Part shown: piece by piece, positions 11,173 to 64,000 of the stretch
Layout of the letters: every line of letters starts with the position of its first letter
Numbering within the stretch: the first letter of the stretch is position 1
Assembly: GCA_045587025.1 (NCBI GenBank)
Contig: JAZNBK010000041.1
Coordinates: forward strand, 40,037-104,036
Direction: 5' to 3'
DNA from: Eubacteriales bacterium
GTDB taxonomy: Bacteria > Bacillota > Clostridia > Oscillospirales > CAG-272
DNA: 64,000 nt
Notes under the pieces: model-generated
Databases searched by the model: none
Told to the model about the DNA's origin: nothing
Seen by the model: only the letters and a program-made list of their open reading frames with translations
Made by a program: the position numbers and the translations under genes

Positions 11173-11248
11173 GCTTTTATATCACGCCGTCGCACAAGGA
11201 CGGCTATCCCCTCTCATAAATTAATGGTTAATGAGTGAAGTGTTGCAA

Positions 11249-14200
11249 TTAAAGGATATCCTCGTCACTTTCCAAATCATCAGATGCTTCTTCAAAAACA
11301 TCCTCATAGCTATCGTCGAACTCCTCGTCCTCCGAATAGTCATCTTCATCAGAAAGCTCATATTCTTCATCAACAGTTTCGCTACTGGAAATATTTTCGG
11401 TCTCTTCTATAACGGGAAGCTCCGGCAAATCATCGTCGTCAACGAGCTGTGAAAGCTCAATTTCCTCGCCGTTTTCGTCAAGAACACGAACGTCGAGAGC
11501 GAGCGACTGCAATTCTTTTACCAAAACCTTGAAGGATTCGGGAATGCCCGGAGTAGGAATGTTTTGTCCCTTTACAATTGCTTCATAAGTCTTAACGCGT
11601 CCTGTGACGTCGTCACTCTTGACGGTAAGGATTTCCTGAAGCGTGTAAGCTGCTCCGTACGCTTCCAAAGCCCAAACTTCCATTTCTCCGAAACGCTGAC
11701 CGCCGAACTGCGCTTTACCACCAAGCGGCTGCTGTGTTACGAGTGAGTACGGACCGTTTGAACGGGCGTGGATCTTATCATCTACCAAGTGATGAAGCTT
11801 GAGGTAATACATGATACCAACGGTAACGGGGTTATCAAACGCATCTCCCGTTCTGCCGTCGTAAAGCGTCATCTTACCGTCTATAACCTTTACGTTGTTC
11901 TCTTTACGGAACGCATTGAGCTTTTCTTCATCCTGCTCAATTTCAGAGTCAACTCTCTGCAAATCTATATTTCCGTTTTCGTCTGTTACCTCAATAAAGA
12001 GAGCTTTACCCTTTACGTTTTCTCCGTCGCGAATATCGCGCGCATAGCCCGCCTGACGTAAAAATTCTACGATGTCCTTCTCGTTTGCGCCGTCGAATAC
12101 GGGAGTCATAATCTTAACTCCGAGCTTCTTTGCGGCTAAGCCGAGGTGGACCTCAAGAACCTGTCCGATATTCATACGTGAAGGAACGCCAAGAGGATTA
12201 AGCACGATATCAAGCGGTGTTCCGTCTGAAAGGAAAGGCATATCTTCAGGGGGAAGTATTCTCGAAACGACACCCTTATTACCGTGACGGCCTGCCATTT
12301 TGTCTCCGACGGAAATCTTTCTCTTCTGCGCTATATATACGCGAACTACCTTATTTACACCGGGAGCGAGGTCGTCGGAATTTGAGCGGTCGAACACCTT
12401 TACGTCTACGACGATACCCGATTCTCCGTGCGGCAAACGAAGCGAGGAGTCTCTTACCTCTCTTGCCTTTTCGCCGAATATTGCGCGGAGCAATCTTTCC
12501 TCAGGCGTCAATTCGGTTTCACCCTTAGGCGTAACCTTACCTACGAGGATGTCGCCTGCGCGTACCTCAGTACCTATCTTTACGATACCCTCTTCGTCCA
12601 AATCCTTCAACGCATCGTCACCGACGTTAGGCACTTCGCGCGTGATTTCCTGCGGACCGAGCTTCGTATCTCTCGCCTCTACGGAATGTTCTTCTATATG
12701 AATGGACGTATAAGTATCCTCACGGACTAATTTTTCATTCAAAAGGACTGCGTCCTCGTAGTTGTATCCTTCCCAGGTCATAAAGCCGATAAGGGCGTTT
12801 TTACCAAGGGAAATTTCACCGTTAGAGGTAGCGGGACCGTCCGCAATTACCTGTCCTTTTATAATCTGCTCTCCCTGTTTAACTATCGGGCGTTGATTTA
12901 CACAAGTACCCTGGTTAGAGCGTTTGAACTTAATGAGGTGGTACGTTTCCTTCTTTCCGCTATCGGTAAGAATGGTAATGCTGTCGGAATCAACACGCTC
13001 AACGACACCGCCCTCACGAGCAACGACAACGGCGCCTGAATCGACTGCCGCCTTGTATTCCATACCCGTCGCAATATAGGGCGAGTCGGTCATCATAAGC
13101 GGAACTGCCTGCTTCTGCATGTTTGAACCCATAAGAGCACGGGTGTTGTCGTCGTTTTCAAGGAAGGGTATCATTGCCGTAGCAACGGAAACTACCATTT
13201 TAGGAGAGGCGTCCATATAATCAATCTTGTTACGGTCAACCTCTATAATCTCGGATTTATCACGGGCAATAACGCGCTTGTTTACGAAGCAGCCGTTTTC
13301 GTCAAGCTCTTCGTTCGCCTGAGCTATGATATAGCTGTCCTCGATATCGGCAGTCATATATTCAATTTCAGACGTTACTCTGCCCGTCGCCTTGTCCACC
13401 TTACGATAAGGCGCCTCCAAAAATCCGTAGTCATTAATCTTTGCGTAAGTTGCAAGATAAGAAATAAGACCGATGTTAGGACCTTCAGGCGTCTCGATAG
13501 GACACATTCTTCCATAGTGGGTATAATGCACGTCACGAACGTCAAAGGAAGCGCGGTCACGTGACAAACCGCCGGGACCGAGAGCAGAAAGACGGCGCTT
13601 GTGTGTCAGCTCTGCCAACGGGTTGTTCTGGTCCATAAACTGAGACAAGGGTGAGGAGCCGAAGAATTCACGGATCGCAGTCGCAACGGGGCGAGTATTA
13701 ATCAAATTCTGAGGAGTCATATCCTCGCTGTCGTGAACCGACATACGCTCCTTGATGTTCTTATCCATCTTGGACATACCGATACGCATCTGGTTCTGGA
13801 GAAGCTCTCCTACGCAACGCAAACGACGGTTGCCCAAATGGTCGATATCGTCAAACGAGCCAACGCCGTGCGTAAGGTTGAGCAAATAGTTGATAGATGA
13901 GAAAATATCATCCTTAGTTATATGCTTAGGGCAAAGCTCGGCAATTCTTTCCTTCGCCATTGCCTTTATCTGCTCTTCATCGCCTTCTGCCGCCGATATA
14001 ATATCGCAAAGGACGGAATATCTGACCTTTTCGTTAATACCGCAATCCTTGAGGTTGTAGCCGAGAACGTATTCCGGCTCGACGGTGCCGTTTGCAAATA
14101 CCTTTACCTCTGCTCCGGCTTCATTATTTATATATACTTCGTTTACAGCGGAGTGTTCAATCTTTTCTGCCAGATCACGAGAGATAATATCTCCTGCGTC

Positions 14201-15136
14201 GGCGATAAGCTCGCCCGTAATAACGCTTACGACAGGGCGCGCAAGCACGAAGCCCCTGATACGGTTCGCCAAAGCAAGCTTCTTATCGAACTTGTAACGT
14301 CCGACAGGCGCTAAATCGTAGCGCTTGGGATCAAAGAACAAGTTATTGACCAAAAGCTGAGCGCTCTCTATAATAGGCGGTTCGCCTGGACGAAGCTTTC
14401 TGTAAATTTCCTTAAGGGCTTCCTCTCCGAGAGTCGTATGTTCCGCTTCTGCATTTTTCGCACATTCGTCCTTTGAAAAGGTAGCGCGAAGTATTTCCTC
14501 GTCGCCGAACATTTCAATAATGCTTTCATCGGACTCCTCGCCGAGCGCACGAATCAGAACCGTTATCGGAATTTTTCTGGTTTTATCAATTTTTACGTAG
14601 AAAACGTTGCTTGCGTCTGTTTCATACTCAAGCCACGCTCCTCTATAAGGGATAACAGTGTTTTTATAGCTGTGATTTCCCGACTTATCCACCTCGCAGA
14701 GATAATATATACCGGGAGAACGAACAAGCTGAGAAACGATAACGCGCTCCGCACCGTTAATGACGAACGTTCCGTTTTCGGTCATAAGAGGGAAATTGCC
14801 CATATAAATATCGGACTGCTTCAACTCTCCCGTCTCTTTATTCGTCAATCTTACAGACACTTTAAGCGGTGCTTCGTAGGTAGCGTCTCTTTCCTTGCAT
14901 TCCTCGACCGAGTATCTCGGCTTAGAGTCAATAGAAAAGTCAACAAAGTTGATTTCAAGGTTGCCTGAATAATCCACAATAGGAGAAACATCCTTAAGAA
15001 CCTCAAACATTCCCTCTTCTAAAAACCACTTAAATGACTTTTTCTGAACCTCAATAAGATTTGGCATATCAAGCGCTTCATCAATCTTAGAAAAACTCAT
15101 TCTAACATTAGTGCCAAGCTTTTGGGGTTTTAGCAT
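11249..15136 (-). CDS. rpoB: DNA-directed RNA polymerase subunit beta
   Basis: The track ORF starts at TTG 15169. ATG 15136 is preceded by GGAGTGG (15144-15150) and gives [18 protein letters not shown]. Motifs [15 protein letters not shown] and PSRMNIGQV. Long acidic C-terminal tail. Confidence 0.98.
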
Positions 15137-15214
15137 AGTAGAACCACTCCATTCCAATAAATTTTTCAAAAATAAATACGTACCCTATTTACACGAATTT
15201 CGACAAGCAACGAA

Positions 15215-15258
15215 ACATAATTTACACAAATTTTACATAAGTTTTACATAAGTTTTAC
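15215..15258. repeat. Four tandem 11-bp units in the rpoB 5' leader
   Basis: Plus-strand units are acataatttac, acaaattttac, ataagttttac and ataagttttac. Each ends in tac, at 15225, 15236, 15247 and 15258, so the period is exactly 11 nt. Confidence 0.9.
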
Positions 15259-15321
15259 TCTTGAACAAACTATGAACGAAATGAAAAATTCGCAAAATAG
15301 GCGAGTATAATGCAATTTAGT

Positions 15322-15350
15322 ATTGTATCACAAATATTACCATTTGTCAA
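15322..15350 (-). promoter_or_regulatory. sigmaA-type promoter of rpoBC
   Basis: The minus strand reads TTGACA (15350-15345), a 17-nt spacer, then TACAAT (15327-15322). An AT-rich UP-like region lies upstream. The leader is ~180 nt. Confidence 0.65.
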
Positions 15351-15581
15351 GCATTTTCAAATAATTTGTAAAAAAATATTTTTTAGGCAATTAAACCAAC
15401 CAAAAAAAGAAAAAATATGCAAAATACACAAACAAATGCGCTGTTAAAATGAATTTTTAATATCAGAACTGTATTTGCTTCAAAAAAAAGAAATAAAAAA
15501 TGACGTTCCCCCACGTTAATTGAGGAAACGCCGTTTGTTTAATATTTGTTAATTTTTAAAAAACGCATAGGTTTTACGGTT

Positions 15582-16265
15582 TCACATAAACAGGCAGAGC
15601 AGAATAGGCAAGAAAATCGCAGGAATTAAATTCGCCGTACGAATTTTGGTAACGCCGAGCATATTAAGACCTATTGCGACAATCACCAAAGATCCGACAC
15701 AGGAAATTTCATTCATCATTGTGGGAGGCAGATGCGTGAGAAACAGCAGGGCAAACAAGGATATTGAGCCCTGATATACAAGCAAGGCAAGCGAGGAAAA
15801 GGCGCATCCTATACCCATGGTACTCGCCATTATAAGACAGGAAATCATATCTATTACTGCCTTTGCAAGTATAGTATCAGGGTTCCCCATAGCGTCCTCA
15901 ATAGCTCCTACTATCGCCATTGAGCCAACGCAGAAAAGAAGCGTACAGCTCACAAAGCCCTCGGCGACAGAAACGCTTTCATCGTTATGCTTCACCTTGG
16001 ACTGAAGGAAGTCGCCCAACCTGTTCACGTATTTCTCTATATTTATAAGCTCGCCTATAAGCGCGCCAACGCCGAGAGAGATAATAGCTATCAGAACGTT
16101 CTCTCCTTCAAGCGCGCCCGAAACGCCTATGAAAAATACGCAAAGCGCCATACCGTGTAATATTGTTTGGCTCACTCTTTGGGGTATTCCCTTTTTAAGA
16201 CGCGAACCGACAATGCCTGCTATCGCCACCAAGGCGGCGTTCACAAGCGTTCCAAGCATAAACAT
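15582..16265 (-). CDS. DUF554-family membrane protein
   Basis: 227 aa with about 6-7 TM segments. The N-terminus MFMLGTLVNAALVAIAGIVGSRLKKGIP is typical of the YdfK/YqgA (DUF554) family as I recall it. RBS agagga lies 6 nt before the ATG. Confidence 0.75.
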   Translation of the reverse strand: MFMLGTLVNAALVAIAGIVGSRLKKGIPQRVSQTILHGMALCVFFIGVSGALEGENVLIAIISLGVGALIGELINIEKYVNRLGDFLQSKVKHNDESVSVAEGFVSCTLLFCVGSMAIVGAIEDAMGNPDTILAKAVIDMISCLIMASTMGIGCAFSSLALLVYQGSISLFALLFLTHLPPTMMNEISCVGSLVIVAIGLNMLGVTKIRTANLIPAIFLPILLCLFM

Positions 16266-16319
16266 ATTCTGTCCTCTTTATGTATCTTATAGAAATATTT
16301 GCATTTAAAACACGAAAGG

Positions 16320-16348
16320 ATTATAGCACAAGAGGTTAAACATTTCAA
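16320..16348 (-). promoter_or_regulatory. Promoter of DUF554 gene
   Basis: The minus strand reads TTGAAA (16348-16343), a 17-nt spacer, then TGcTATAAT (extended -10; TATAAT 16325-16320). It begins 8 nt after the wecB stop. Confidence 0.55.
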
Positions 16349-16355
16349 TACTTTT

Positions 16356-17456
16356 TTAGAATTTTATCTTTTCCTTCAATATTTTTACGATTTGAGAAGA
16401 AACTCTGCCGTCGCCGTAGGAATACGCAGACGAGCGCATTTTAATATATTCTTCCCTGCTTTCAATGAGGCGTTTCGTATTAATATAAATCTCATCTGTT
16501 TCCGTACCGACCAGCTTCATAATTCCGCTCATACATCCCTCGCTCCGCTCCGTAGTATCTCGCATAATAAGCATAGGCACTCCGAGCGTTGCCGCCTCCT
16601 CCTGTATCCCTCCGCTATCACTCAAAACGAGAAACGATTTGGACAAAACGTTTTGAAAGTCATACACCGACATTGGCTCTGACAGAATTACGTTTTCAAC
16701 ACCCGAAAGATTTGGAACTATCAAAGAGCGAACGGCAGGATTAGGATGCATCGGGCAAATAATTTTCAAGCTCGGATATTCGGCGGCTATACGCCTCACC
16801 GCTAAACACATATTCAAAATCGGCCTTCCTATATTTTCCCTTCTGTGAGCGGTAAAGAGTATTATCTTTTTGCCCTTTTCCAGAAGCGCGTTTTTATAGG
16901 ATGCCGTTACCGTATAACGCAAGGCGTCCGTCACCGTGTTCCCTACGACGAAAATATTTTCTTCCTTTTTTCTTAATGATATTAAATTATCTTTGGCGGC
17001 AATAGTTGGCGCAAAGCAATAGTCGGCAATCAGATCTATCGCCGCCCTGTTCCATTCCTCAGGGAAAGGCGAATTTACGTCAAACGAACGAAGCCCCGCT
17101 TCTATATGAACGATAGGTATTTTTTGGTAGAATGCAGCCAAGGCAGACGCAAATGCAGTGAGGGTATCTCCGTGAACGATTACAATTTTGGGATTTACTG
17201 TTAAAATCACCTCTGCATAGGCAAGCAGAGCGTTCGCCGTCAGATTTGTAATATCGCTTTTCCCCTCGCAAATCCTCAGATTTTTATCAGGGATTATTTT
17301 AAAAAAGTCGAGGACGTCGTCTGCAAGCGTACTATGCTGCCCCGAATGACATACGTAAAGAGAAAATCCGCTCTCCTTTTTCAATTCGATAATCAACGGG
17401 GCTAACTTTATTGCTTCAGGACGCGTACCAAAGGACACAAATATTTTTTCACTCAT
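16356..17456 (-). CDS. wecB: UDP-N-acetylglucosamine 2-epimerase (non-hydrolysing)
   Basis: 366 aa. FGTRPEAIKLAPL, HSGQH, VHGDT, HIEAGLRSF...PFPEEWNR. Confidence 0.9.
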   Translation of the reverse strand: MSEKIFVSFGTRPEAIKLAPLIIELKKESGFSLYVCHSGQHSTLADDVLDFFKIIPDKNLRICEGKSDITNLTANALLAYAEVILTVNPKIVIVHGDTLTAFASALAAFYQKIPIVHIEAGLRSFDVNSPFPEEWNRAAIDLIADYCFAPTIAAKDNLISLRKKEENIFVVGNTVTDALRYTVTASYKNALLEKGKKIILFTAHRRENIGRPILNMCLAVRRIAAEYPSLKIICPMHPNPAVRSLIVPNLSGVENVILSEPMSVYDFQNVLSKSFLVLSDSGGIQEEAATLGVPMLIMRDTTERSEGCMSGIMKLVGTETDEIYINTKRLIESREEYIKMRSSAYSYGDGRVSSQIVKILKEKIKF

Positions 17457-27417: not shown

Positions 27418-27540
27418 AAAAAATGCCTCGGAGATGTCAAGTCCGAGGCAATAAGACTCTCATCTAACAGGATTTAGCACCTTGCAAAAACAGGTTGCCG
27501 GGCTTCATAGGGCCAGTCCCTCCGCCACTCTTGATAAGAA
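27418..27540 (-). promoter_or_regulatory. SAM-I (S-box) riboswitch with terminator
   Basis: The minus strand reads TTCTTATCAAGAGTGGCGGAGGGACTGGCCCTATGAAGCCCGGCAACCTGTTTTTGCAAGGTGCTAAATCCTGTTAGATGAGAG (27540 down to about 27455). This is followed by the terminator tgcctcgga/tccgaggca (27424-27450) and a T-run (A-run 27418-27423 on +). Confidence 0.93.
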
Positions 27541-53562: not shown

Positions 53563-54876
53563 TCACTCTCTGTTCAAAACTTCGGATATTAAAGAGTATC
53601 CGTCATTCTCGTTTGCAACTATTTTAACTCCGAGCTTCTTTGAAAGCTCGTCGATACTCATACCGCACAAGAACAAATCTCTGTCATAACGCAACGCATT
53701 TGCAGGCAAAATCAATTTATCTCCAAGCTCTTTTCCCACTAACTGCTCGAATATATCCTTCCCTGTCAAAAGTCCCGCTACGGTAATCTGCTCTCCGAAA
53801 TAATTATTCTTTATCTTATAAACGTTTACCTTTACCTCAGGATACAAGCTTTCGAGCTTTTCGCACATTGCTTTAATGTGCGGATATACAGCATAGCCCG
53901 TAGCGACAGAGACGCAGGACTCCTTTTTTGGCGTTTCGCCATAATTCATCATTTGGGAAAGCTCGAAATCAAATTCACTCTGCAAGGAGCGTAACATACC
54001 CACTCCATTTTCTATCTGACTGTATTCCTCATAATATTCTTCGCTCGGTATATCAAGTCCTGCCTTCAGGTAAAGCTCGTCGCCTGCGAAAAATAATCTG
54101 GTCCCGTTTTTACTTTTAAACGCTTCTGAAAACTCATCTATTTGAGCAATAATACTCGCGCACTCCTCGGGTGAAAATGGCGACAGCGGATAAAGCCCGT
54201 CTCTGAAATCGGTAAGCCCTGCAGGAACGATAGACACACTCTCAAGCGACGGATAGAGAGAGGAAAGGTCTCGCATCGTCCTGTCAAGATCTATGCCGTC
54301 GTTTATTCCTCTGCACAAAACAATCTGTCCGTGCATTTTTATACCGGCTTCAGCAAGCTTTTCAAGATATGACAGAACCTCGCCAGCGCGCTTGTTATTC
54401 ATCATTGAAACACGCAGTTCGGGGTTTGTCGTATGAATTGAAACGTTTATCGGAGAAAAACGCATTTTTATAATGCGGTCTATGTCCTTGTCCTGAAGGT
54501 TCGTCAAGGTTATATAGTTTCCGTGCAAAAAGGAGAGTCGCGAGTCGTCGTCCTTAAAATACAGGGTTTCTCTCATTCCCTTCGGCAGCTGGTCAATAAA
54601 GCAGAAGATACATTTGTTTTTGCAGGACTGCTTTTTGTCCATAAGAGGTGTTTCAAAGCAAAGCCCTATATCGTCGTATATACCCTTTTTAATCTTTACC
54701 GAAAAGATTTTTTCTTCTCTTTTTAAAGATAATATTATCTTTTTTTCTGCGAGATAAAAGCGATAATCGAGAACGTCGTTTATATCATTCCCATTAATAG
54801 AAATAAGTATATCGCCTTCCCTTATTCCTGCGCTTTCGGCAGAAGAATTTTTTTCTACTCCAACTATACTAACCAT
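53563..54876 (-). CDS. PDZ plus radical-SAM-like DUF512 protein
   Basis: ATG 54876 with RBS ggaga (the track start at 54903 is a TTG). PDZ-like segment SAESAGIREGDILISING. Cys cluster CKNKCIFCF. 437 aa. Confidence 0.8.
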   Translation of the reverse strand: MVSIVGVEKNSSAESAGIREGDILISINGNDINDVLDYRFYLAEKKIILSLKREEKIFSVKIKKGIYDDIGLCFETPLMDKKQSCKNKCIFCFIDQLPKGMRETLYFKDDDSRLSFLHGNYITLTNLQDKDIDRIIKMRFSPINVSIHTTNPELRVSMMNNKRAGEVLSYLEKLAEAGIKMHGQIVLCRGINDGIDLDRTMRDLSSLYPSLESVSIVPAGLTDFRDGLYPLSPFSPEECASIIAQIDEFSEAFKSKNGTRLFFAGDELYLKAGLDIPSEEYYEEYSQIENGVGMLRSLQSEFDFELSQMMNYGETPKKESCVSVATGYAVYPHIKAMCEKLESLYPEVKVNVYKIKNNYFGEQITVAGLLTGKDIFEQLVGKELGDKLILPANALRYDRDLFLCGMSIDELSKKLGVKIVANENDGYSLISEVLNRE

Positions 54877-54954
54877 ATTTTCTCCAAAGAATTTATAGAC
54901 CAAGCTTGTTTTTAAGCTACATGCTTAGAAAACAATAATACTCCAATATAATAC

Positions 54955-55017: not shown

Positions 55018-55048
55018 AAAAATGCGCGCCCCTGAAAATCAGGGGCGC
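55018..55048 (-). terminator. Terminator of beta-helix paralog A
   Basis: gcgcccct (55026-55033) pairs with aggggcgc (55041-55048). On the minus strand a T-run follows (A-run 55018-55022 on +). Confidence 0.85.
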
Positions 55049-55067: not shown

Positions 55068-58000
55068 TTATTTGATTTTACCCATTCTCGTATAGTCGAT
55101 TTCCTGCAAGATTCTGACGTATGCCGCATTCATCTCGGAGGATATATCATTCCAAGCAGATTCAGGAATTGTATAATTGTAATCCTTGATATTCGGCATT
55201 ACATCCGAATAATCGTATTGATAGTAGTTGTTATAAACCGCTTCCATACCCTCGATAAAGCCAGCGTAACCACGGTTACGTACGTCATTTGTAATAACGT
55301 CGTCAAGAGTATCGCCTTCTCTCAATCCGCCTAAGATCAGATTGTTGGATATAAACGCAAATGCGGGCTGTCTTTCAAGACGCTCCATTGCTGCGATATC
55401 GTCAAGAGTTACGGTAAATCCTCTTCCGTTTGAAGCAACCAGAGTACGCTCAGGCATTATCGCTATCTGCCCATTTGCATTGATATACTCGTATTCGGGG
55501 ATATAAAGCATTTCGCCATCCTCAACGTCGTCGGCATAAACGAACTGCTTACCGGAAAGCTGCTGCGGAGCGTAGGTAGGCATATATCCGCCCATTTCAT
55601 ACGCCTTCAAAATAAGCTTGATGCGTGTGAAGTTCGCCATATATTCGGGGAAGCGCTGCTTGAGAATCTCGGTGTTCTGATCATTGAAGCGCGCTTTGAT
55701 CTCGGCCTCTCTGTCGCCCTTCCACCAGTGACCTGCCTCGTTGTTTCTCGGATCTCCGTCACCGTAGTAGTAATAGAAGAGACCTGACTGGTTGATTGAA
55801 TCTCCTTGGGTAATCTTTCCTGTTGCTTCATCGTAGTCAAGACCCTTTGCATCCGCAATCTCCGCTAAGCTACGGAAAATCATAATGTTCGCATAGCATA
55901 CGTTACCGTGTCCTGAGGACGAATACCAGCCCTTATTGAAGTTGGATTTTGAACCGAGTGTGCTTACTATATTTCCGTACGCGTAAATTCCGCTTGATTT
56001 ACCGTCGTTGTAAACTGCGTTATGTGTAGCGTGGAACTTGTGGAAAAGGTTAAAACGAATATGGTGTCCGCGTGTATTCGAGCCAGTCATATAAATCATA
56101 CCGCCGTCGGTTACATATCTGTTACCGCCTGCGAATTCGTTATACTCAATAATGTTCTCAAGACCCAGATTAGTCATACAGCAGTCAAGAAAAGTGTTGT
56201 GTGAAACAACTACCCGACAGCCGTTTACGCTAAGTCCGTACGGAGAGGTCGCGCTTGAAGCGTTAATAACGTTATTCTGTATAATAATGTTGCTCGGCTT
56301 AACAGCTGTTACGGAATCTGCGCCCGAAATTGCAACCATAGCACCTGCGATTGCATTAGAAAATTCGGAATGAATCAAAGCGCAGTTGTAAGAGTTCTGG
56401 AAGTTAAAGCCGGTAGATACCGTATTCTTGGTAGAAATATTCTGAACCACAACGTTGCTACAAGCGTAGAAGTGCATACCTGCTCCGCCCGTGCCGTCTA
56501 TGTGAATGTTATCAACGATAGCGTACTCAACATCGAGCATCTGGAACGCAACTATACCGTCATCGCCAGAATAAGCAATCTTCTGACCTGCAAAGTTATC
56601 GGACTTCGGATAAATATAGAGATTACCCGTTTCCTTGTCTACAAACCATTCGCCGGGAGCGTCAAGCGCTTCTATAGCATTGAAGAGGTAGAATACGTTA
56701 CGTCCTGCCGCCGAGTTCGACGAAACGAGCGCTCCGTATCTGCAGGGCTGTACGGATTTAAGCGAATAGTAGCCGTCATCCTTTTTCGTGCCTAAGTAAT
56801 TGCCCAAATGTACGCAGTTGGGGTCTATATTGTAATATTCGAATTCCCAACCGGAATAAACGTTACCGTAATACCAGATATCTCCCGTGTTTATCCAGGA
56901 AAGAGGTCCGTCAGCGATGTTCTTGTTGGGATAACGAATTTCCCAACCAATAACAGAATCGAGAGTGAGCGTTCCGCCGGAACTGTTTACTCTTTCAACC
57001 CAACCGGCATAGTTCACGGTCGCAGTATCCGAAACGCTTCCTATATCATATACGTGGGTGAAGTACAACAAATCGGTAGGATCGATATCGGTTCCGTCCT
57101 CATAATAAGCGTTAGGATAACGAGCAAGAGTGAATTCCTCGCCATCGACAAAAACGCTTGCGTGTCCTGAGATGGACACTTCTCTTAAGTCTGAGGGCTC
57201 AAAGCCGTTTTCAAAAAGATTTACGTATAATACTTTATCCTTTGCTTCGTCGGGAATGCGCGACGCTATACTGTCATTTGCTGCGTCTATCTTCTTGAAT
57301 TTACTACCGTCTATCGTCTGGTTTGTGGTAATCGTTACCTTCTCATCACCGTATCCTATAACGAAGAGAGGAGACAAAATCGTACCGCTATTGGTCGAGC
57401 TGAACTTAACGGTCTCATCAACGAAGTAGGTACCGCCCTCTATCCAGATAGCGCCGCCACCCTCGTTGTTCATCAATTCAATCGCCTTGGCTATAGTCTT
57501 AACGGGCTTCTTCTTGGTACCCGAATTTGCATCGTCGCCGCTATTTGCGGATACGTAAACCTGCTTCTTTGCCTTAGATGCGGGGTAATCGTCTATCGAA
57601 ATTTTATCAATGATGGTAACCTCGTCGGGAAGCTCATCCTTAGTGATAAAGAATCTGTCCATTACGGAATCAACGTTTTCGATAGCGTTATCATATTCCT
57701 CGCTGATATCAGCAAGCTCAGAGGGGAGATTGTGATTTATAAGGGTAGGAGCAACGAATTCCTCGCCAAAAACGTTCTCAATCTTTATGTCGTAGCTCTT
57801 GCCCTTAGGAATTTTCAAAAGAGTTTCGTTAATAAATTCTCTCAATGCGAAGGTAATAGCAGAATCGCCGTTTCCGTAAAGAGCAAGCTTGTTCGCCGTT
57901 TGCTCCATCGCATACGTGCCAACGTCAAGCTCCTTTGCGGTCTCTGCTCTTCTCGTGTTTCCTACGAGAATCTCATAGGTTACCTCTTTTTCAGAAGGAG

Positions 58001-58658
58001 CAACTATCGGAACGTCTGCGCCTGCTATGCTGGCAAATAGCTCCTGCAAATATGCCGTCATAACCTTTTCTGACGAGCTTATGCCGTTCCCTCTTACTAT
58101 AACGAAATCGGAAACGTCTACGCCGCCGATGGTCAGAGTATCTACAGTGTACTCACTCTTACGGGTATATCCTTCGCCCGCAGGATACAAGAGTCCCTCG
58201 TCTGCGACAAGATATGACATGAAATGCTCAAGAGCCCTCAAGGTGTATTTTTCAGAACCACCGATAATAAGCAAGCGATTATTTACCATACCGATAAAGT
58301 AGTCATTTGCGCGGAGGGTTTCATACACCTGTTTACTTTCCTCACGGTTTGTATTACCTATAAGAATCTCAAGAGTTCCTACAGGAGCGGTCTCGCCCGG
58401 CATAAGAAAGTCGGAGCCGGCTCTGGGCATGCTTCCGTATTTCGTCCTGAGTGACGTAACAAAATCAACGGCAGCATCTGACAATGTACTTGAAGCGCCT
58501 TCAGGATAGACAATGGAATAGTCAAGCCAATTCAAAAGCGCCTCCGTTGCATACGTAGGGATTTCTTCTTCGTCGCCGCTCGGTTTTTTGTTACATGACA
58601 CCAATGAAAATGCCAAAACAACAGCGAGCAACAACACTAACCATTTTGCTTTTTTCAT
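55068..58658 (-). CDS. Large surface lipoprotein with right-handed parallel beta-helix region (paralog A)
   Basis: ATG 58658 with RBS GGAGGAAA (the track ORF starts at 58685). 1196 aa. Signal peptide plus lipobox MKKAKWLVLLLAVVLAFSLVSC. Duplicated N-terminal module (LEILIGNTNREES... and YEILVGNTRRAET...). Beta-helix entry motif KKQVYVSANSGDDANSGTKKKPVKTIAKAI...GGGAIWIEGGTY. PbH1-like repeats (VDNIHIDGTGG..., VVVQNISTKN...). Confidence 0.8.
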   Translation of the reverse strand: MKKAKWLVLLLAVVLAFSLVSCNKKPSGDEEEIPTYATEALLNWLDYSIVYPEGASSTLSDAAVDFVTSLRTKYGSMPRAGSDFLMPGETAPVGTLEILIGNTNREESKQVYETLRANDYFIGMVNNRLLIIGGSEKYTLRALEHFMSYLVADEGLLYPAGEGYTRKSEYTVDTLTIGGVDVSDFVIVRGNGISSSEKVMTAYLQELFASIAGADVPIVAPSEKEVTYEILVGNTRRAETAKELDVGTYAMEQTANKLALYGNGDSAITFALREFINETLLKIPKGKSYDIKIENVFGEEFVAPTLINHNLPSELADISEEYDNAIENVDSVMDRFFITKDELPDEVTIIDKISIDDYPASKAKKQVYVSANSGDDANSGTKKKPVKTIAKAIELMNNEGGGAIWIEGGTYFVDETVKFSSTNSGTILSPLFVIGYGDEKVTITTNQTIDGSKFKKIDAANDSIASRIPDEAKDKVLYVNLFENGFEPSDLREVSISGHASVFVDGEEFTLARYPNAYYEDGTDIDPTDLLYFTHVYDIGSVSDTATVNYAGWVERVNSSGGTLTLDSVIGWEIRYPNKNIADGPLSWINTGDIWYYGNVYSGWEFEYYNIDPNCVHLGNYLGTKKDDGYYSLKSVQPCRYGALVSSNSAAGRNVFYLFNAIEALDAPGEWFVDKETGNLYIYPKSDNFAGQKIAYSGDDGIVAFQMLDVEYAIVDNIHIDGTGGAGMHFYACSNVVVQNISTKNTVSTGFNFQNSYNCALIHSEFSNAIAGAMVAISGADSVTAVKPSNIIIQNNVINASSATSPYGLSVNGCRVVVSHNTFLDCCMTNLGLENIIEYNEFAGGNRYVTDGGMIYMTGSNTRGHHIRFNLFHKFHATHNAVYNDGKSSGIYAYGNIVSTLGSKSNFNKGWYSSSGHGNVCYANIMIFRSLAEIADAKGLDYDEATGKITQGDSINQSGLFYYYYGDGDPRNNEAGHWWKGDREAEIKARFNDQNTEILKQRFPEYMANFTRIKLILKAYEMGGYMPTYAPQQLSGKQFVYADDVEDGEMLYIPEYEYINANGQIAIMPERTLVASNGRGFTVTLDDIAAMERLERQPAFAFISNNLILGGLREGDTLDDVITNDVRNRGYAGFIEGMEAVYNNYYQYDYSDVMPNIKDYNYTIPESAWNDISSEMNAAYVRILQEIDYTRMGKIK

Positions 58659-58707
58659 AATTTCCTCCAAAAAATTTTTTATCAAAAAAATATAATTATA
58701 CTATCTA

Positions 58708-58736
58708 ATTATACCTTATTTACACCTAAAAGTAAA
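58708..58736 (-). promoter_or_regulatory. Promoter of paralog A
   Basis: The minus strand reads TTTACT (58736-58731), a 17-nt spacer, then TATAAT (58713-58708), 50 nt upstream of the ATG. Confidence 0.55.
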
Positions 58737-58790
58737 TACGGAATTATAGACAAATTTTGAGCTCGTTTTTTGTTTATATTGCTATTTCCC

Positions 58791-58825
58791 AAAAAATATT
58801 CACCCGAACCGTATTGATTCGGGTG
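58791..58825 (-). terminator. Terminator of paralog B
   Basis: cacccgaa (58801-58808) pairs with ttcgggtg (58818-58825). On the minus strand it is followed by aatatttttt. Confidence 0.8.
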
Positions 58826-58843
58826 AACAACAAATTTGAATTT

Positions 58844-61800
58844 TTATTCAATTTTACCCATTACGCTGAAATCAATTCCCTGTAATATTCTCACAAAAGA
58901 AGTGTTCATTTCCTGCGTTATACTATCCCACGCCTCTTTTGGAATCGTATAATCGCGCTTACTGATATTAGGCATAATGCTCGAGTAATTATACTTATGA
59001 TAATTGTTATATATATCGCTCGTGCCTTCAATATATCCCTTATATTTTTCGACGCCGTTCGTTATCACGTCATCAATCGTATCATTTGGCTTCAACCCAC
59101 CTAAAACGAGGTTGTTCGATATGAAGGAAAAGGCGGGCTGTCTTTCTAAGCGCTCCATTGCGGCAATATCATCGTACGTTACGGTAAATCCATTTCCGTT
59201 TTCAGCCGTCAAGGTGCGCTCGGACATCACGGCAATTTTTCCCGATTCGTCGATATACTCGTATTCGGGAATGTAAAGCTTTTCCCCATCCTCAACGTCG
59301 GTATAAATAAACTCCTTGCCGGAAAGTGTTTTTGGCTCATAGGTAGGTCTGTATCCCTCGTCATACGCCGCCAAAATCAACTTAATGCGAGTAATGTTTG
59401 CCATATAGTCGGGAAAACGCTGCTTCAAAATGGCGGTATTGGATTTATTGAAGCGATAATCTATCTCTTCAATTCTATGACCTGTCCACCAGTGCCCTGC
59501 TTCACTGTTTCTCGAATCACCGTCGCCGTAATAGTAATAGAAAAGTCCCGATTCGTCTATTGAATCGCCCGTTATGTATTTTTTTGTCTCTTCATCCAGG
59601 TCGAGTCCCTTTGCCGCTGCTATCTCCTCTTGGCTACGGAATATCATAATATTAGCATAGCATACGTTTCCGTGTCCTGAGGATGAATACCAGCCCTTAT
59701 TGAAGTTGGAGTCCGAGCCAAGCGTGCTTACTATATTTCCGTATGTATATACGCCGCTCGTTTTGCCGTCGTTATAAACTGCGTTATGAGTCGCGTGGAA
59801 TTGGTGGAAAAGATTATAACGAATATGATGGCCGCGGTTATTATATCCCGTCATATATACCATGCCTCCGTCGGTTACGAACTTATTTCCGCCGACAAAT
59901 TCGTTATATTCAATTATATTCTCAAGACCTGACGTCGTTATACAGGCATCTATGAAGTCATTGTGCGAAATAACTATACGACAACCGGTCGCCTGAAGTC
60001 CATTTGATCTCGTCTGACTCGTATCTCTGACTATATTGTTCTGGAAAATTATATTAGTCGGCTTTAATTCGGTTATCGAATTGACGTTCGTAATATTAAC
60101 CATAGCACTATCTTTAGAGTGCGAAAATTCCGAGTGTGTTACGGCTATATTATTCGAAAGCTCAATTACCAAGCCGGAATATCTGACGTTGGTCGTCGAT
60201 ATGTTCTGAAGCACGACGTTATCGCAAGAGAAGGTATATACGCCCGTGTGGCTCGCGCCGTTCACGTGTATATTATCAACGACTGCGAACGAAGTCTCAA
60301 GCATCCTCAGAAGCGTTAATTTGTTATCGCCCGAATAAGTGATATATTGCTTTGAAATATCTTCTTTTTTAGGATAAATATAGAGGTTTCCGGTTTCTTT
60401 ATCTATAAACCATTCGCCAGGCACATCGAGCGCCTCGATAGCGTTAAACATATAGAAGGTGTTGCGGCCTGCGGCAGAGTTTGACGACACGCTAGCGCCG
60501 TATATACATGGCTGTACCGATTTTAGAGAATAGAAGCCGCCTTCCTTTTCAAAGCCCAGAAGGTTACCATCGTGGACGCAGTTCGGGTCCATCGTATAAT
60601 ATCCGAACTCCCAACCGGAATACACACTTCCGTAATACCAGATATCACCCGTATTTACCCAAGAGCATACCTCGTCGTCATTATCTTCGTAATGGGGTAG
60701 CTGAATCTCCCAACCTATCTGGGAATTCATCGTGAGTCCCGAGCCGGGTGAATTTACTCTCTCTACCCAGCCCGCATAGTTCATTGTCTCCTTCATCGAG
60801 ACGCTTCCCACTTCATACACGTGGTTGAAATACATCAAATCCTTTATATCGATATGCGTTACCCCGTCCTCGTAATACGCATTCGGGAATCGGGCTAAGG
60901 TAAATTCCTCGCCATCCACGTAAAGAGTAGCGCTTCCGTCCGTAGTTACCTTTGGAATATCGTTATAAGTAAATCCAAGATCATAAAGGTTGGTATAAAC
61001 GACCTTATCCTGCGCTTCCTCGGGAAGACGCGCCGCTACCTTATCAATAGTAGGATCTACCTTTTTAAAATTCTGATTGTTTATTAAGGTGTTATCTGTA
61101 ATGACTACCGGCTCGTCGCCGTACCCGATAATAAACAAAGGAGATTCAATAGTTCCGCTATGTGTAGAATCAAAGGTGATAGATTCGGTGACGGTATACA
61201 TTCCTCCCTCTATCCAAATAACACCGCCTCCCGCATTTTTCATTTTTTCGGCGGCCCTGGCTATACTTCTCAAGGGAGCTTCCTCTGTGCCGGGGTTTGA
61301 ATCACTTCCCCTTTTTACCGAGACGTAGATCTGCTTCTTTTGCTTGGATGCGGGGAAATCGTCTAATGAAATTTTGTCGAGAACGGTAATCTCTTCGGGC
61401 AGCTCATCCACAGTTATAAAAAACCTGTCTATTACAGAATCGACGTTCTCTACTGCATTTTCATATTCACCGCTGATGTCGACTATTTTCAGGGGAAGAT
61501 TAGTTTCTACGAGGGAAGGCATTATGACCGTCTCGCCAAAAACGTTTTCAACCGAAATGTTATGTCCGCTACCCTTTGGTATTCCCGTCAGCTCATTTTT
61601 AACAAAGGTCTTTATTGCATATGAAATCGAATGCTTTCCGTTGCCGTAAATGGCGAGCTTAGAGTCGGTCTGCTCTATCGCATACGTATCCTCCTCAAGC
61701 AACTTCGAGGTCTCTTCCCTCTTAGTATCTCCTATGAGAATTTCATAAGCGGATTCCTCTGCGTAAGAATTGACCTTCGGAACATCTACGCCACAGATAT

Positions 61801-62425
61801 CGGCAATCTGCCCTCTTAGCTCGTCTACCATCCGCTTGTCCTCGTCACTCAACCCCTCTCCGAGAACTATGGTATATTCCGACACGCCAACTCCGCCTAT
61901 CGTTAAATAATCTATCAGATAGTCATACCTGTAGGTATATTCGATTTCGGGGCGCAGAAGTCCCTCGTCTCCAAGAAAATACTCTTTAAAATATTCTATT
62001 GCCTTTACGGTATACTCGTCAGAGCCGCCTATAATGACCAAGCGGTCTCCTGCCATACCGACGAAATAGTCGTTTACACGAAGCTCTTCGAATATCTCTA
62101 TACTTTCCTTACGGTTCGTGTTGCCTATAAGTATCTCCCGCGCCGTCTCAGAAATTTCATCTTCCGATGCAACGAAATCGGAGATAGCTTTGAGGTCTAC
62201 GTTATATTTTTCGGATATACCTCTGCTTAAATCCAAAAAGGCATCGGATATCGACTCGGAGACGTTATCTGAATATACGAGCGTGTATTCCTGCCAATTT
62301 TCAAGCAGCGCCGCCTTGAACGTAGTAACCTCATCTTCCACAACGGGCGGTTGTTTATGACACGATGTAAAGGCAAGCGCCAAAGAAAAAACAATGACTG
62401 CTATCAAAAAAATTCTTTTTTTCAT
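58844..62425 (-). CDS. Large surface lipoprotein with right-handed parallel beta-helix region (paralog B)
   Basis: 1193 aa. MKKRIFLIAVIVFSLALAFTSC signal peptide and lipobox. Collinear with paralog A over its full length, with the same module order and conserved blocks. Confidence 0.8.
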   Translation of the reverse strand: MKKRIFLIAVIVFSLALAFTSCHKQPPVVEDEVTTFKAALLENWQEYTLVYSDNVSESISDAFLDLSRGISEKYNVDLKAISDFVASEDEISETAREILIGNTNRKESIEIFEELRVNDYFVGMAGDRLVIIGGSDEYTVKAIEYFKEYFLGDEGLLRPEIEYTYRYDYLIDYLTIGGVGVSEYTIVLGEGLSDEDKRMVDELRGQIADICGVDVPKVNSYAEESAYEILIGDTKREETSKLLEEDTYAIEQTDSKLAIYGNGKHSISYAIKTFVKNELTGIPKGSGHNISVENVFGETVIMPSLVETNLPLKIVDISGEYENAVENVDSVIDRFFITVDELPEEITVLDKISLDDFPASKQKKQIYVSVKRGSDSNPGTEEAPLRSIARAAEKMKNAGGGVIWIEGGMYTVTESITFDSTHSGTIESPLFIIGYGDEPVVITDNTLINNQNFKKVDPTIDKVAARLPEEAQDKVVYTNLYDLGFTYNDIPKVTTDGSATLYVDGEEFTLARFPNAYYEDGVTHIDIKDLMYFNHVYEVGSVSMKETMNYAGWVERVNSPGSGLTMNSQIGWEIQLPHYEDNDDEVCSWVNTGDIWYYGSVYSGWEFGYYTMDPNCVHDGNLLGFEKEGGFYSLKSVQPCIYGASVSSNSAAGRNTFYMFNAIEALDVPGEWFIDKETGNLYIYPKKEDISKQYITYSGDNKLTLLRMLETSFAVVDNIHVNGASHTGVYTFSCDNVVLQNISTTNVRYSGLVIELSNNIAVTHSEFSHSKDSAMVNITNVNSITELKPTNIIFQNNIVRDTSQTRSNGLQATGCRIVISHNDFIDACITTSGLENIIEYNEFVGGNKFVTDGGMVYMTGYNNRGHHIRYNLFHQFHATHNAVYNDGKTSGVYTYGNIVSTLGSDSNFNKGWYSSSGHGNVCYANIMIFRSQEEIAAAKGLDLDEETKKYITGDSIDESGLFYYYYGDGDSRNSEAGHWWTGHRIEEIDYRFNKSNTAILKQRFPDYMANITRIKLILAAYDEGYRPTYEPKTLSGKEFIYTDVEDGEKLYIPEYEYIDESGKIAVMSERTLTAENGNGFTVTYDDIAAMERLERQPAFSFISNNLVLGGLKPNDTIDDVITNGVEKYKGYIEGTSDIYNNYHKYNYSSIMPNISKRDYTIPKEAWDSITQEMNTSFVRILQGIDFSVMGKIE

Positions 62426-62470
62426 ATTTTCCTCCGAAAATCAAGCGTTTATAATTTTATTTACATCTTA

Positions 62471-62499
62471 ATTATACGTTAATTATCACTAAAAGTAAA
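62471..62499 (-). promoter_or_regulatory. Promoter of paralog B
   Basis: The minus strand reads TTTACT (62499-62494), a 17-nt spacer, then TATAAT (62476-62471), 46 nt upstream of the ATG. The geometry matches the paralog A promoter. Confidence 0.55.
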
Positions 62500-62547
62500 T
62501 AAGTAATTATTACAAACTTTTATTAATTTTTTGTATATATTGTCATT

Positions 62548-62585
62548 AAAAAAACTATCCACCCAAGCGAACTTCGGGTGGATAG
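62548..62585 (-). terminator. Terminator of paralog C
   Basis: ctatccaccc (62555-62564) pairs with gggtggatag (62576-62585). On the minus strand a T7 run follows (A-run 62548-62554 on +). Confidence 0.85.
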
Positions 62586-62594
62586 CCGTCTTAA

Positions 62595-64000
62595 CTATTT
62601 TTCGATCTTGCCCATTCTGGTATAATCAATTGTACGTAGGATATTGACGAAGGATGCATTCATTTCCTTGGTTATGGTATCCCATGCGGTTTCCGATATC
62701 GTGTAATTATAATCCCTGACACCTGGCATAATTTGTGAGTAATCGTACTTGTAGTAGTTGTTATAAATTGCGCTTGTGCCGTCGATAAAGCCCTTGTATA
62801 CCTCTACGTGATTAGTAATGACGTCATCGATAGTATCGCTCGGTCTCAATCCGCCTAAAATGAGGTTGTTGGATATAAACGCAAACGCGGGCTGTCTTTC
62901 AAGACGCTCCATTGCTGCGATATCGTCGTACGTTACGGTAAATCCATTTCCGTTTTCAGCCGTCAAGGTGCGCTCAGGCATTACTGCGATTTTGCCCGAT
63001 GCGTTGATATACTCGTATTCGGGAATATAAAGCATTGCTCCGTCCTCTACGTTTTTATAGACGAACTCTTTGCCTGAAAGTGTTTGCGGCTCGTAGGTAG
63101 GTCTGTAGCCGACGTCATACGCCGCCAAGATCAACTGAATACGTGAGAGGTTTGCCATATAATCGGGGAAACGTTGCTTCAACGCTACAACGTTAGACTG
63201 ATTCAGACGGTAAGCTACCTCTTCTCTTCTGTGTCCCGGCCACCAGTGACCTGCCTCGCTGTTTCTCGGATCTCCGTCGCCGTAGTAGTAATAGAACAAT
63301 CCTGATTCATTTATACTGTCACCGGTTACTATCATCTCTGTTCCTTCATCGGTGTCATATCCCTTCGCCGCCGCTATCTCCTCTGCGCTGCGGAACACCA
63401 TAATGTTTGCATAGCATACGTTTCCGTGTCCCGAGGATGAGTACCAGCCCTTATTGTAGTTAGAGGTCGAGCCAAGCGTGTTTACTATGTTTCCATACGA
63501 ATACACGCCGCTTGTTTTACCGTCGTTATAAATTGCGTTATGAGTTGCGTGGAAGTGGTGGAAGAGATTATAACGAATATGGTGTCCGCGGTTATTATAG
63601 CCGGTCATATATACCATACCGCCGTCGGTTACGTATTTATTTCCGCCTGCAAATTCATTATACTCTATGATGTTCTCTACACCTGTATTAGTCATACACG
63701 CGTCAAGGAAGGTGTTATGAGAAATGACCGCGCGGCACGCCGTTACGCTAAGTCCATACGCATTCGACGGACTTGTATCACGAACTATATTGTTCTGGAA
63801 AATTATATTGCTCGGCTTAAGTGTTTTCGTTGAATCCGCATTTGTAATATTAACAATAACTGCCTGAATTGAACGTGAGAACTCGGAATTTATTATAGCT
63901 GCATTATTAGTAACATGAAGTACCAAGCCCGAGTTGTTCGTATTCGTCGTCGAGATATTCTGCATTACGATATTATCGCAGCTGTAAGTATAGATACCCG
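62595..64000 (-). CDS. Beta-helix lipoprotein paralog C (5' part beyond window edge)
   Basis: The frame stays open to nt 64000. Upstream of the tracked Met it reads GIYTYSCDNIVMQNISTT, which aligns with GVYTFSCDNVVLQNISTT of paralog B. At least 467 aa are visible, collinear with the C-terminal 40% of A and B. Confidence 0.8.
   Translation of the reverse strand, partial: GIYTYSCDNIVMQNISTTNTNNSGLVLHVTNNAAIINSEFSRSIQAVIVNITNADSTKTLKPSNIIFQNNIVRDTSPSNAYGLSVTACRAVISHNTFLDACMTNTGVENIIEYNEFAGGNKYVTDGGMVYMTGYNNRGHHIRYNLFHHFHATHNAIYNDGKTSGVYSYGNIVNTLGSTSNYNKGWYSSSGHGNVCYANIMVFRSAEEIAAAKGYDTDEGTEMIVTGDSINESGLFYYYYGDGDPRNSEAGHWWPGHRREEVAYRLNQSNVVALKQRFPDYMANLSRIQLILAAYDVGYRPTYEPQTLSGKEFVYKNVEDGAMLYIPEYEYINASGKIAVMPERTLTAENGNGFTVTYDDIAAMERLERQPAFAFISNNLILGGLRPSDTIDDVITNHVEVYKGFIDGTSAIYNNYYKYDYSQIMPGVRDYNYTISETAWDTITKEMNASFVNILRTIDYTRMGKIEK

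Follow-up and report, generated by a model that had tools for sequence, protein, structure and literature searches.

Glycoside hydrolases (GHs) of family GH141 are built on a parallel, right-handed beta-helix with a beta-sandwich inserted after the N-cap coils, ahead of the remaining helix, and unusual cleavages of rhamnogalacturonan-II, xylan, and fucoidan are on record for them. The members used for comparison here are BT_1002 from Bacteroides thetaiotaomicron (PDB 5MQP), Xyn141E from Acetivibrio thermocellus, and the endo-fucanases Wf141. Catalytic pairs have been assigned as D523/D564 in BT_1002 and D540/D577 in Xyn141E (PMC10154630, PMC5593877), signature motifs xDG… and xRxDx have been described (PMC12786026), and at most two GH141 genes per genome have been reported (PMC10154630). 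Sets of paralogous, glycan-active surface proteins encoded side by side are otherwise met in polysaccharide utilisation loci (PULs), including Gram-positive PULs, where a mixed enzyme set is accompanied by a co-located transporter, binding protein, and regulator. In this work, a 64,000-nt stretch from a Eubacteriales bacterium (assembly GCA_045587025.1, contig JAZNBK010000041.1; hereafter the window) was analysed, with the focus on a tandem array of three paralogous genes, copies A, B, and C. Judged from sequence, the array would encode lipid-anchored cell-surface glycoside hydrolases of a GH141-like beta-helix clan, in a sub-clade with an EYNE motif that also holds the protein of PDB entry 9rx2; this is the reading that we favour, with moderate confidence.

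The array consists of three minus-strand open reading frames (ORFs) with stops at 55068, 58844, and 62595. The ORF listing and translations agree with a preliminary description of three same-strand genes with a ~3.75-kb period, the exact spacing being 3776 and 3751 bp, and with its product sizes of 1196, 1193, and 467 visible aa. Copies are counted within the window, and copy C crosses its edge at 64000. It was said to run off the window, which holds for the DNA, as only 467 aa are visible, but the protein is not open-ended: it is complete as the 1185-aa P0002, with 100% identity over the 467 aa. A, B, and P0002 are all recorded on one NCBI contig of 108,545 bp. Copy A starts with the ATG at 58658, with GGAGG 7 nt upstream, whereas the mechanical ORF start is the TTG at 58685. 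The three copies are collinear paralogs, 60–65% identical; in BLASTP (E = 0 throughout), A and B share 60% identity over the full length, and the visible part of C shares 76% with B and 69% with A. The long identical blocks quoted earlier are all present, NKGWYSSSGHGNVCYANIM and DDIAAMERLERQPAF in A, B, and C, and DKETGNLYIYPK in A and B.

The full-length AlphaFold2 (AF2) model of copy A (predicted local distance difference test score, pLDDT, 77; predicted template modelling score 0.71) is a right-handed beta-helix with an inserted beta domain. The best PDB match of this model in Foldseek is GH141 BT_1002 (5mqp; E 2.5e-18, probability 1.00, template modelling score 0.54 on the target), so that the beta-helix nature of the products, proposed from sequence motifs, is supported by model and fold match. 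GH120 XylC (E 3e-9) and GH110 and GH136 beta-helix hydrolases come next, with lyases and phage depolymerases far behind. The insertion expected of GH141 was found by the Pfam model GH141_M (PF21231; 29.6 bits in A and 28.2 bits in B, cut-off 27), by AF2, and by the alignment with BT_1002. As in described GH141 enzymes, the helix begins with a DUF1565-type N-cap, and the beta-sandwich is inserted after the first coils and ends with (L)D.(P/A)GEW(F/Y).D…Y.YP; two conserved Asp residues, possible counterparts of the GH141 catalytic pair, lie one to two coils apart. At the level of sequence, a profile of the core (alignment A2) run against PDB matches 9rx2 in the cap, the insertion, and the catalytic coils as well as at the C-terminal end (E 2.9e-39), whereas its match to BT_1002 (E 4e-29) is confined to the cap and insertion. 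Membership in GH141 is plausible by fold and insertion domain, but a search for a full-length match to a characterised family gave no confident one: the GH141 likeness lies in the cap, the insertion, and the fold, and not detectably in the catalytic coils of BT_1002. Identity to BT_1002 in the structural alignment is only 15%. The array proteins are set apart from described GH141 by their motif class (EYNE…D.G..Y…R.N…(Y.D), which is not the pattern of the other class with cap and GH141_M), by the lipobox, the two duplicated N-terminal modules, and the ~265-aa C-terminal extension, which roughly double the size, and by their occurrence in tandem arrays of 2 to at least 6 genes.

The best sequence relative among solved structures is 9rx2, a 717-aa PDB entry named “Parallel beta-helix repeat protein”. 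It has in common with the array proteins the motif EYNE…DG.GIY…R.NY.HH…D, and the signature coils match its residues 491–580 with E 9.5e-9; it is much shorter and is without the two N-terminal modules or the C-terminal insertion. GH120 XylC (3VST), GH110 alpha-1,3-galactosidases (9I4F, 8YK2), and GH136 lacto-N-biosidases (6KQT, 7V6I) are likewise beta-helix glycosidases with accessory beta domains, but their likeness to the array proteins is far weaker (fold matches with E 3e-9 to 3e-3) and limited to the cap or the general fold, and no shared catalytic motif was seen. Membership in GH136 of the LnbX type was considered and rejected: ErLnb136 (6kqs) matches only the linker and cap (residues 287–446, E 1.2e-4; residues 366–445, E 7e-5), and its fold match reaches only E 3e-3.

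The evidence for a candidate active site comes from a signature present in A, B, and C within the core of cap, GH141_M, and beta-helix: (I/V)EYNE, then after ~10 residues D.G..Y, after another ~10 R.N..H, and after ~10 more Y.D. In copy A numbering, the residues E838, N840, D851, Y856, R868, N870, D885, Y894, and N896 are shared without exception by relatives as distant as about 23–30% identity, and E670 and D674 of the insertion domain are invariant in the broad family. The candidate catalytic residues are kept in 22/22 array copies. Among 155 related ORFs of the fetched loci (L018–L167), 55 carry EYNE…D.G..Y…R.N and 42 carry DHG..N.WGRD…LDDGS, and the two patterns are mutually exclusive; the array proteins and 9rx2 belong to the EYNE class, and the cap and GH141_M are common to both classes. 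When profiles of the EYNE and GDHG/LDDGS classes were compared with hhalign (probability 100%, E 8e-110), the counterpart of D851 was the GDHG Asp, and that of D885 was the first of the two Asp residues in LDDGS. In the phmmer alignment of a GDHG/LDDGS-class Bacteroidota ORF (locus L073) with BT_1002, which extends to residue 499, D523 falls about one coil further, where the GDHG Asp lies. The phmmer alignment of P0019 with BT_1002 also ends at about residue 499. The spacing of D851 and D885 is 34 residues, compared with 41 in BT_1002 and 37 in Xyn141E. From the conserved pairing of Asp residues across the classes, the spacing, and the position of D523, we infer that D851 and D885 are the candidate acid/base pair. 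Together, the top fold match to BT_1002 and the invariant acidic motif make a carbohydrate-active role, proposed in the preliminary description, the best reading.

If so, cleavage of the signal peptide at the lipobox Cys would leave the protein anchored on the outside of the membrane in a Clostridia-type (monoderm) cell, where the two alpha/beta modules and the helical linker may hold the catalytic body off the membrane. By analogy with BT_1002, a glycan chain would be bound in the groove between the beta-helix and the beta-sandwich insertion, and D851 and D885, possibly aided by E838 and H917, could carry out acid/base hydrolysis, as conservation and alignment suggest.

A different chemistry on the same fold and in the same place has to be considered. 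In that case the proteins would be polysaccharide lyases (or epimerases or esterases), the acidic residues and asparagines would bind metal, and R868 or a nearby basic residue would act as the base on a uronic-acid-containing polymer. R868 is indeed invariant beside E838, D851, and D885; the weaker fold matches include the family 6 polysaccharide lyase 7o84, chondroitinase B (1dbg), capsule lyases/depolymerases, pectate lyase 5olp, rhamnogalacturonan lyase 5olq, and mannuronan epimerase 5lw3; and precomputed Pfam hits to “Pel9A-like_beta_helix” exist on related copies. However, hydrolases lead widely (E 2.5e-18 for GH141 and 3e-9 for GH120, with lyases at 1e-4 at best), the sequence matches of lyases fall on the cap or generic coils and not on the conserved motif, and the two-Asp arrangement mirrors the GH141 classes. 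We consider the lyase explanation unlikely, though deserving of attention.

The second question is whether the proteins are enzymes at all. They might be non-catalytic surface proteins, i.e., adhesins, glycan-binding proteins, or an antigenically varied coat, with the beta-helix serving as a scaffold. That would suit large, multi-copy proteins with predicted lipid anchors and no known activity, whose signal peptides hardly differ within an array in spite of diverged mature N-termini, and whose similarity among copies and between strains is mosaic. Yet the polar/acidic signature is invariant across phyla as well as in all array copies, and invariant signatures of this kind are typical of active sites rather than scaffolds. 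Purifying selection, estimated as the ratio of nonsynonymous to synonymous divergence (dN/dS) between the window and the related strain of locus L087, is strongest at B residues 602–901 (0.02–0.04). Moreover, the spacers showed neither invertible nor slippage elements, and Rfam gave no RNA element within the array. Of the earlier alternative of enzymes or adhesins, the enzyme half thus stands, and the adhesin half is less likely given the invariant catalytic-type residues; to us a purely structural role appears rather improbable.

Several results weigh against reading the array as GH141-like hydrolases. The profile of the catalytic coils does not detect BT_1002 even at E<=10 and finds only 9rx2, so that equating D851/D885 with D523/D564 rests on transitive alignment and spacing. 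The invariant residues were placed by sequence alignment, and their lining of the groove is a prediction of the same kind. The GH141_M match is limited to the last 35 positions of the model (122–156), and the DUF1565 and Pfam Beta_helix matches are below cut-off. The presence of beta-helix lyases among the weaker matches, with an invariant R868 in the motif, belongs here as well. A literature search for 9RX2 found no paper, and this structure, having no described function, permits no functional transfer; to our knowledge, no member of the EYNE sub-clade with demonstrated activity has been reported. Finally, no transporter, regulator, glycan-use partner, or other carbohydrate-active enzyme (CAZyme) is present beside the array in the window, which covers its downstream side, the upstream side lying outside, and neither is there a sugar transporter, regulator, or CAZyme beside the syntenic array of locus L006.

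The coordinates of the array and its parts are collected in Table 1, together with the related arrays.

Table 1. Genes, protein regions, and intergenic elements of the array in window coordinates, and tandem arrays of related loci. Residue numbers follow copy A unless stated otherwise.
Feature	Position	Strand	Description
Copy A	55068..58658	-	Complete 1196-aa predicted lipoprotein, third in transcription order; exact protein P0171 in the collection
Copy B	58844..62425	-	Complete 1193-aa predicted lipoprotein, second in transcription order; exact protein P0170
Copy C	62595..64000	-	First in transcription order; C-terminal 467 aa within the window
A, signal peptide and lipobox L-V-S-C22	58593..58658 (Cys codon 58593-58595)	-	From translation; residues 1-32 with low pLDDT
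A, residues 36-300	57759..58553	-	Two tandem alpha/beta modules (36-165, 170-300); internal duplication; confidently modelled, helices and strands mixed
A, residues 366-450	57309..57563	-	Beta-helix N-cap and first coils (KKQ.YVS..G.D.N.GT..P); aligns with BT_1002 25-117 and 9rx2 18-131
A, residues 451-690	56589..57308	-	Beta-sandwich insertion ending LDAPGEWF.D…LYIYP; aligns with BT_1002 249-297 and 9rx2 235-273
A, residues 691-930	55869..56588	-	Beta-helix coils: variable coils 699-798, then conserved candidate catalytic coils
A, residues 931-1196	55071..55868	-	C-terminal extension with DDIAAMERLERQPAF; helices 976-1021, beta-rich 1038-1147, terminal helices
A, candidate catalytic residues	E838 56145-56147, D851 56106-56108, R868 56055-56057, D885 56004-56006, H917 55908-55910	-	In the conserved coils; E838, D851, R868, and D885 invariant
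B, catalytic-type motif	59762..59911	-	EYNEF (839-843) … TDGGM (851-855) … YNDGK (884-888), copy B numbering
C, catalytic-type motif	63516..63665	-	EYNEF … TDGGM … YNDGK
C-B spacer	62426..62594	-	C terminator (stem 62587-62553 and T-run), promoter-like TTTACT-17-TATAAT (62499-62471), ribosome-binding site of B
B-A spacer	58659..58843	-	B terminator (stem 58829-58797 and T-run), promoter-like TTTACT-17-TATAAT (58736-58708), ribosome-binding site of A
Terminator-like hairpin 3' of copy A	55026..55048	-	10-bp stem with 8 GC pairs, then T-run
Array L006/L013 (GCA_045654845.1)			Three copies directly upstream of DUF512-der-obg-PPIase-AI-2E-DUF6873, as in the window
Array L168/L169			Two copies between a beta-lactamase-family gene and DUF512/obg
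Array L002/L003			At least six copies; upstream flank as in L168
Array L170			Five copies; adjoining genes GH123 and an AraC regulator
Array L171			Three copies near NagA/NagB-like genes
Array L087			Strain related to the window organism (Logan SRR17418337); same C-B-A order

Outside the catalytic body, the proteins begin with a signal peptide and lipobox, read as LVSC in A, FTSC in B (with an atypical F at -3), and, from P0002, LASC in C, as judged by the pattern [LVI][ASTVI][GAS]C. The lipobox Cys was invariant in 16/16 and then in 22/22 family copies, which upholds the lipoprotein signals reported before; lipidation and surface exposure are accordingly predictions drawn from this signal. 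The internal duplication of the N-terminal module, also proposed earlier, was recovered by BLASTP between the halves (30% identity over 89 aa, E 1e-6). GH20, GH84, GH115, and GH67 enzymes occur in the Foldseek list of the whole protein (E 1e-4 to 6e-3), and copy B has weak Pfam hits to Glyco_hydro_20b (E 0.036) and DUF3876. We infer that these Foldseek matches belong to the N-terminal modules, the matching residues not being displayed by the tool. The modules resemble the N-terminal alpha/beta domains of those families (“GH20b”-type) in being mixed alpha/beta in the model; in contrast to them, the array module is tandem-duplicated, follows a lipobox, and leads into a beta-helix rather than a TIM barrel. 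It is also found at the head of other Clostridia proteins, all with Beta_helix domains. The third copy of the syntenic L006 array (13787–16549; 920 aa) has its own lipobox but is without the two modules, so they are dispensable for at least one paralog.

At the other end, the C-terminal region described as ~330 aa does exist, but about 265 aa lie beyond the last regular coils. In the full model this extension contains strands resembling closing coils; the C-terminal 269 aa modelled alone reached a pLDDT of 64, and no fold in PDB matched them at E<=1e-3. A weak alignment with the end of 9rx2 is seen for the extreme C-terminus in the broader core family. NCBIfam gave only far-below-threshold hits. 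The core and C-terminal extension (residues ~294–1197) also end a 3367-aa protein, P0043, and the 1641-aa P0016 has a relative of the core from ~residue 593 through the catalytic coils, behind Listeria-Bacteroides repeat domains; these are alternative ways to display the same enzyme body. The cap motif Q.Y.S…G.D…GT…P.KT (A residues 365–416, window ~57411–57566) also matches the N-terminal domain of asparagine-tRNA ligase (8fa3 at E 4.6e-5 with the family profile; 8fa3 and 4zya at E ~0.5 with a single sequence), probably as a shared short structural motif.

Downstream of each copy lies a strong hairpin with a T-run, the stems being 14 bp after C and B and 10 bp and GC-rich after A, and an identical promoter-like TTTACT-17-TATAAT precedes both B and A. 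Homology links the two spacers with each other and with the two of the L087 strain, from which it follows that the duplication unit includes the promoter and that the copies look monocistronic. Each copy would then be transcribed from its own homologous promoter and end at its own terminator. The window neighbours are a DUF512/radical-S-adenosylmethionine (SAM)-like gene, Der/EngA, Obg, a peptidyl-prolyl isomerase (PPIase), AI-2E, and DUF6873. The ribosome-assembly GTPases named earlier are thus found, after the DUF512/radical-SAM-like gene, and the identities of the neighbours agree with the earlier remark that no transporter, regulator, or glycan-utilisation partner is nearby. In the syntenic L006 locus, the genes upstream of the array are a peptidase M24 and DUF4432. 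Judged by the genes of the window and of L006, the array is not a PUL in the usual sense, the transporter, binding protein, and regulator being missing from the cluster. It also differs from PULs in that its genes look monocistronic and that its paralogs all belong to one family. The DUF512/PDZ/radical-SAM-like gene (window 53563–54903, minus strand), directly downstream of the array, is the conserved right-hand array boundary in three lineages (window, L006, and L168); its protein from the mechanical TTG start is absent from the collection, so the true start is probably different. Elsewhere on the minus strand of the window, a flavin mononucleotide riboswitch (2674–2794, 94.5 bits) and a SAM riboswitch (27457–27540, 74.2 bits) were found.

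Tandem arrays recur in relatives. At least 2 tandem copies were found in 18/81 fetched loci with a core match; 16 of these are from the subfamily of full-length lipoproteins or from the Clostridia relatives nearest to it (L014–L016), and the other two (L145 and L165) are distant metagenome loci with about 23–27% identity. In a neighbour-joining tree, the copies group by array with 100% bootstrap, meaning that arrays arose or were homogenised within lineages, a pattern that fits repeated lineage-specific duplication or concerted evolution. A ubiquitous single-copy ortholog of the same architecture, which according to the preliminary description would speak against a lineage-specific expansion, was not found; arrays are the rule. 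What cannot be kept is the word “recently” for that expansion. The copies are 60–65% identical with saturated synonymous divergence (dS about 2.3 for A–B, dN/dS 0.13), the syntenic three-copy L006 array has copies about 47% identical, and arrays of 2, 3, 5, and at least 6 copies exist elsewhere. Since dS is saturated, dN/dS between paralogs is uninformative. Between orthologs of the window and L087 (for B, this is P0001, 92% identical), dN/dS is 0.18 for A, 0.10 for B, and 0.13 for C. Together with dS, these values indicate that the genes are functional and old, not a recent burst.

The copies differ most at residues 1–100, 451–500, and 699–798, and least at 849–948, with 76–94% pairwise identity. 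Given that the candidate residues are kept while region 699–798 and the N-terminal modules vary, the likeliest reading of the array is a battery in which the chemistry is common and the preference for substrate or linkage differs from copy to copy. The copies resemble one another in a mosaic manner: A is nearer to C in the N-terminal part (86% at residues 101–150, compared with 58–62% for the other two pairs), and B is nearer to C in the C-terminal part (94% at residues 849–898). This points to recombination or gene conversion, as far as such sequence patterns can tell. Divergence between strains is mosaic as well. Window 56097–63628 and L087 1–7566 form one collinear DNA alignment with 100% identity inside C, about 90% in B, and 73–80% in the beta-helix of A, and the ortholog dS is 0.08, 0.40, and 0.79 in the order C, B, A, which suggests recombination with divergent alleles. 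The array would grow, shrink, and reshuffle by duplication and recombination within each lineage. In the arrays of L170 (1702–21397) and L002 (2203–21321), the signal peptides are nearly identical and the mature N-termini have diverged; four L170 copies have the signal peptide MKKTKLLAILFV..LALASCGGN. The 5' ends and promoters of arrays may be homogenised.

Mosaic divergence is often seen at surface-structure loci, and this raises the question of whose glycans would be cut. It can be proposed that the enzymes act on polymers of the cell's own envelope (capsule, exopolysaccharide, or secondary cell-wall glycans), remodelling or releasing surface glycans, with paralogs matching variable self-glycans. 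The housekeeping neighbourhood (DUF512, der, obg, PPIase) without an uptake system, the plain sigma-70-type promoter-like sites with no adjacent regulator, the fall from 100% to 73% DNA identity along the array between strains, and the capsule depolymerase tailspikes among the weaker fold matches are all consistent with this. On the other hand, no glycosyltransferase, flippase, or capsule genes were noted beside the arrays examined, two related arrays adjoin catabolic genes (GH123 with AraC in L170, NagA/NagB-like genes in L171), and the hosts, judged by the titles of metagenome-assembled genomes (MAGs) and contigs, come from herbivore and other gut samples, where diet glycans are the obvious substrates. 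An envelope-directed role appears to us improbable, about as much so as the lyase chemistry. The genes adjoining L170 and L171, of which none has a counterpart in the window, are themselves only faint hints at a glycan context.

Tailspikes and depolymerases among the weak fold matches, together with one weak PHROG “tail protein” hit (E 4e-5, A residues 322–421, linker and cap), could also be taken to mean that the array is a prophage or mobile-element set of tailspike-like depolymerases. This is effectively refuted: the proteins have lipoprotein signals, no phage or transposase genes lie nearby in the window or in L006, L168, L170, and L171, the GC content of the array matches the rest of the window, and the chromosomal position is conserved across the three lineages with the same right-hand boundary.

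With regard to distribution, 22 relatives came up when 5.8 billion cluster representatives were searched by word index, and about 15 of these are full-length. The exhaustive search with a profile yielded 17,442 proteins at E<=1e-3 and, at E<1e-30, 1,560 50%-identity clusters. Nearly all matched in the core only, and most of the length is covered in roughly 20–30 50%-identity representatives. The scarcity of full-length relatives is in line with the array having been called an accessory block. The MAGs with full-length relatives are of uncultured “Eubacteriales”, Oscillospiraceae, and Clostridia, and many are gut-derived by title; core-only relatives, among the matches listed, are from Planctomycetota, Verrucomicrobiota, Acidobacteriota, Lentisphaerota, and others. 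In a metagenome scan with the family alignment, only distant single-domain relatives were among the matches listed. Two other large ORFs of the window (7576–15169, minus strand) were considered as further paralogs and rejected, as they are rpoC (1198 aa) and rpoB (1306 aa). Among 15 billion proteins, no other falls in the 90%-identity cluster of the window's RpoC, which indicates that the organism is rarely sampled.

Taking the array proteins as GH141-like surface hydrolases, a broader proposal can be made, tentatively and in the expectation that it is more apt to fail than to hold. The EYNE clade may be a distinct GH family, or a GH141 subfamily with its own specificity, which in a group of gut Clostridia forms a tandem battery of 2 to at least 6 surface depolymerases that diversifies itself, being reshuffled by duplication, gene conversion, and inter-strain recombination. 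The clade also holds many single-copy relatives in Planctomycetota, Verrucomicrobiota, Acidobacteriota, and others. No new principle is involved: glycanases with a beta-helix, anchoring as lipoproteins, and the expansion of gene families are well known. If the copies are active enzymes, the clade would be a large pool of beta-helix glycanases, counted by its 1,560 clusters, adjoining GH141. The arrays provide ready-made sets of paralogs that share one catalytic-type motif and would differ in their grooves; such sets are handy for mapping the determinants of specificity. If the battery reading is true, they would represent a transporter-less alternative to PULs by which monoderm bacteria track variable complex glycans, and they may explain how poorly studied Clostridia of the gut degrade complex glycans of diet or host when classical utilisation loci are missing.

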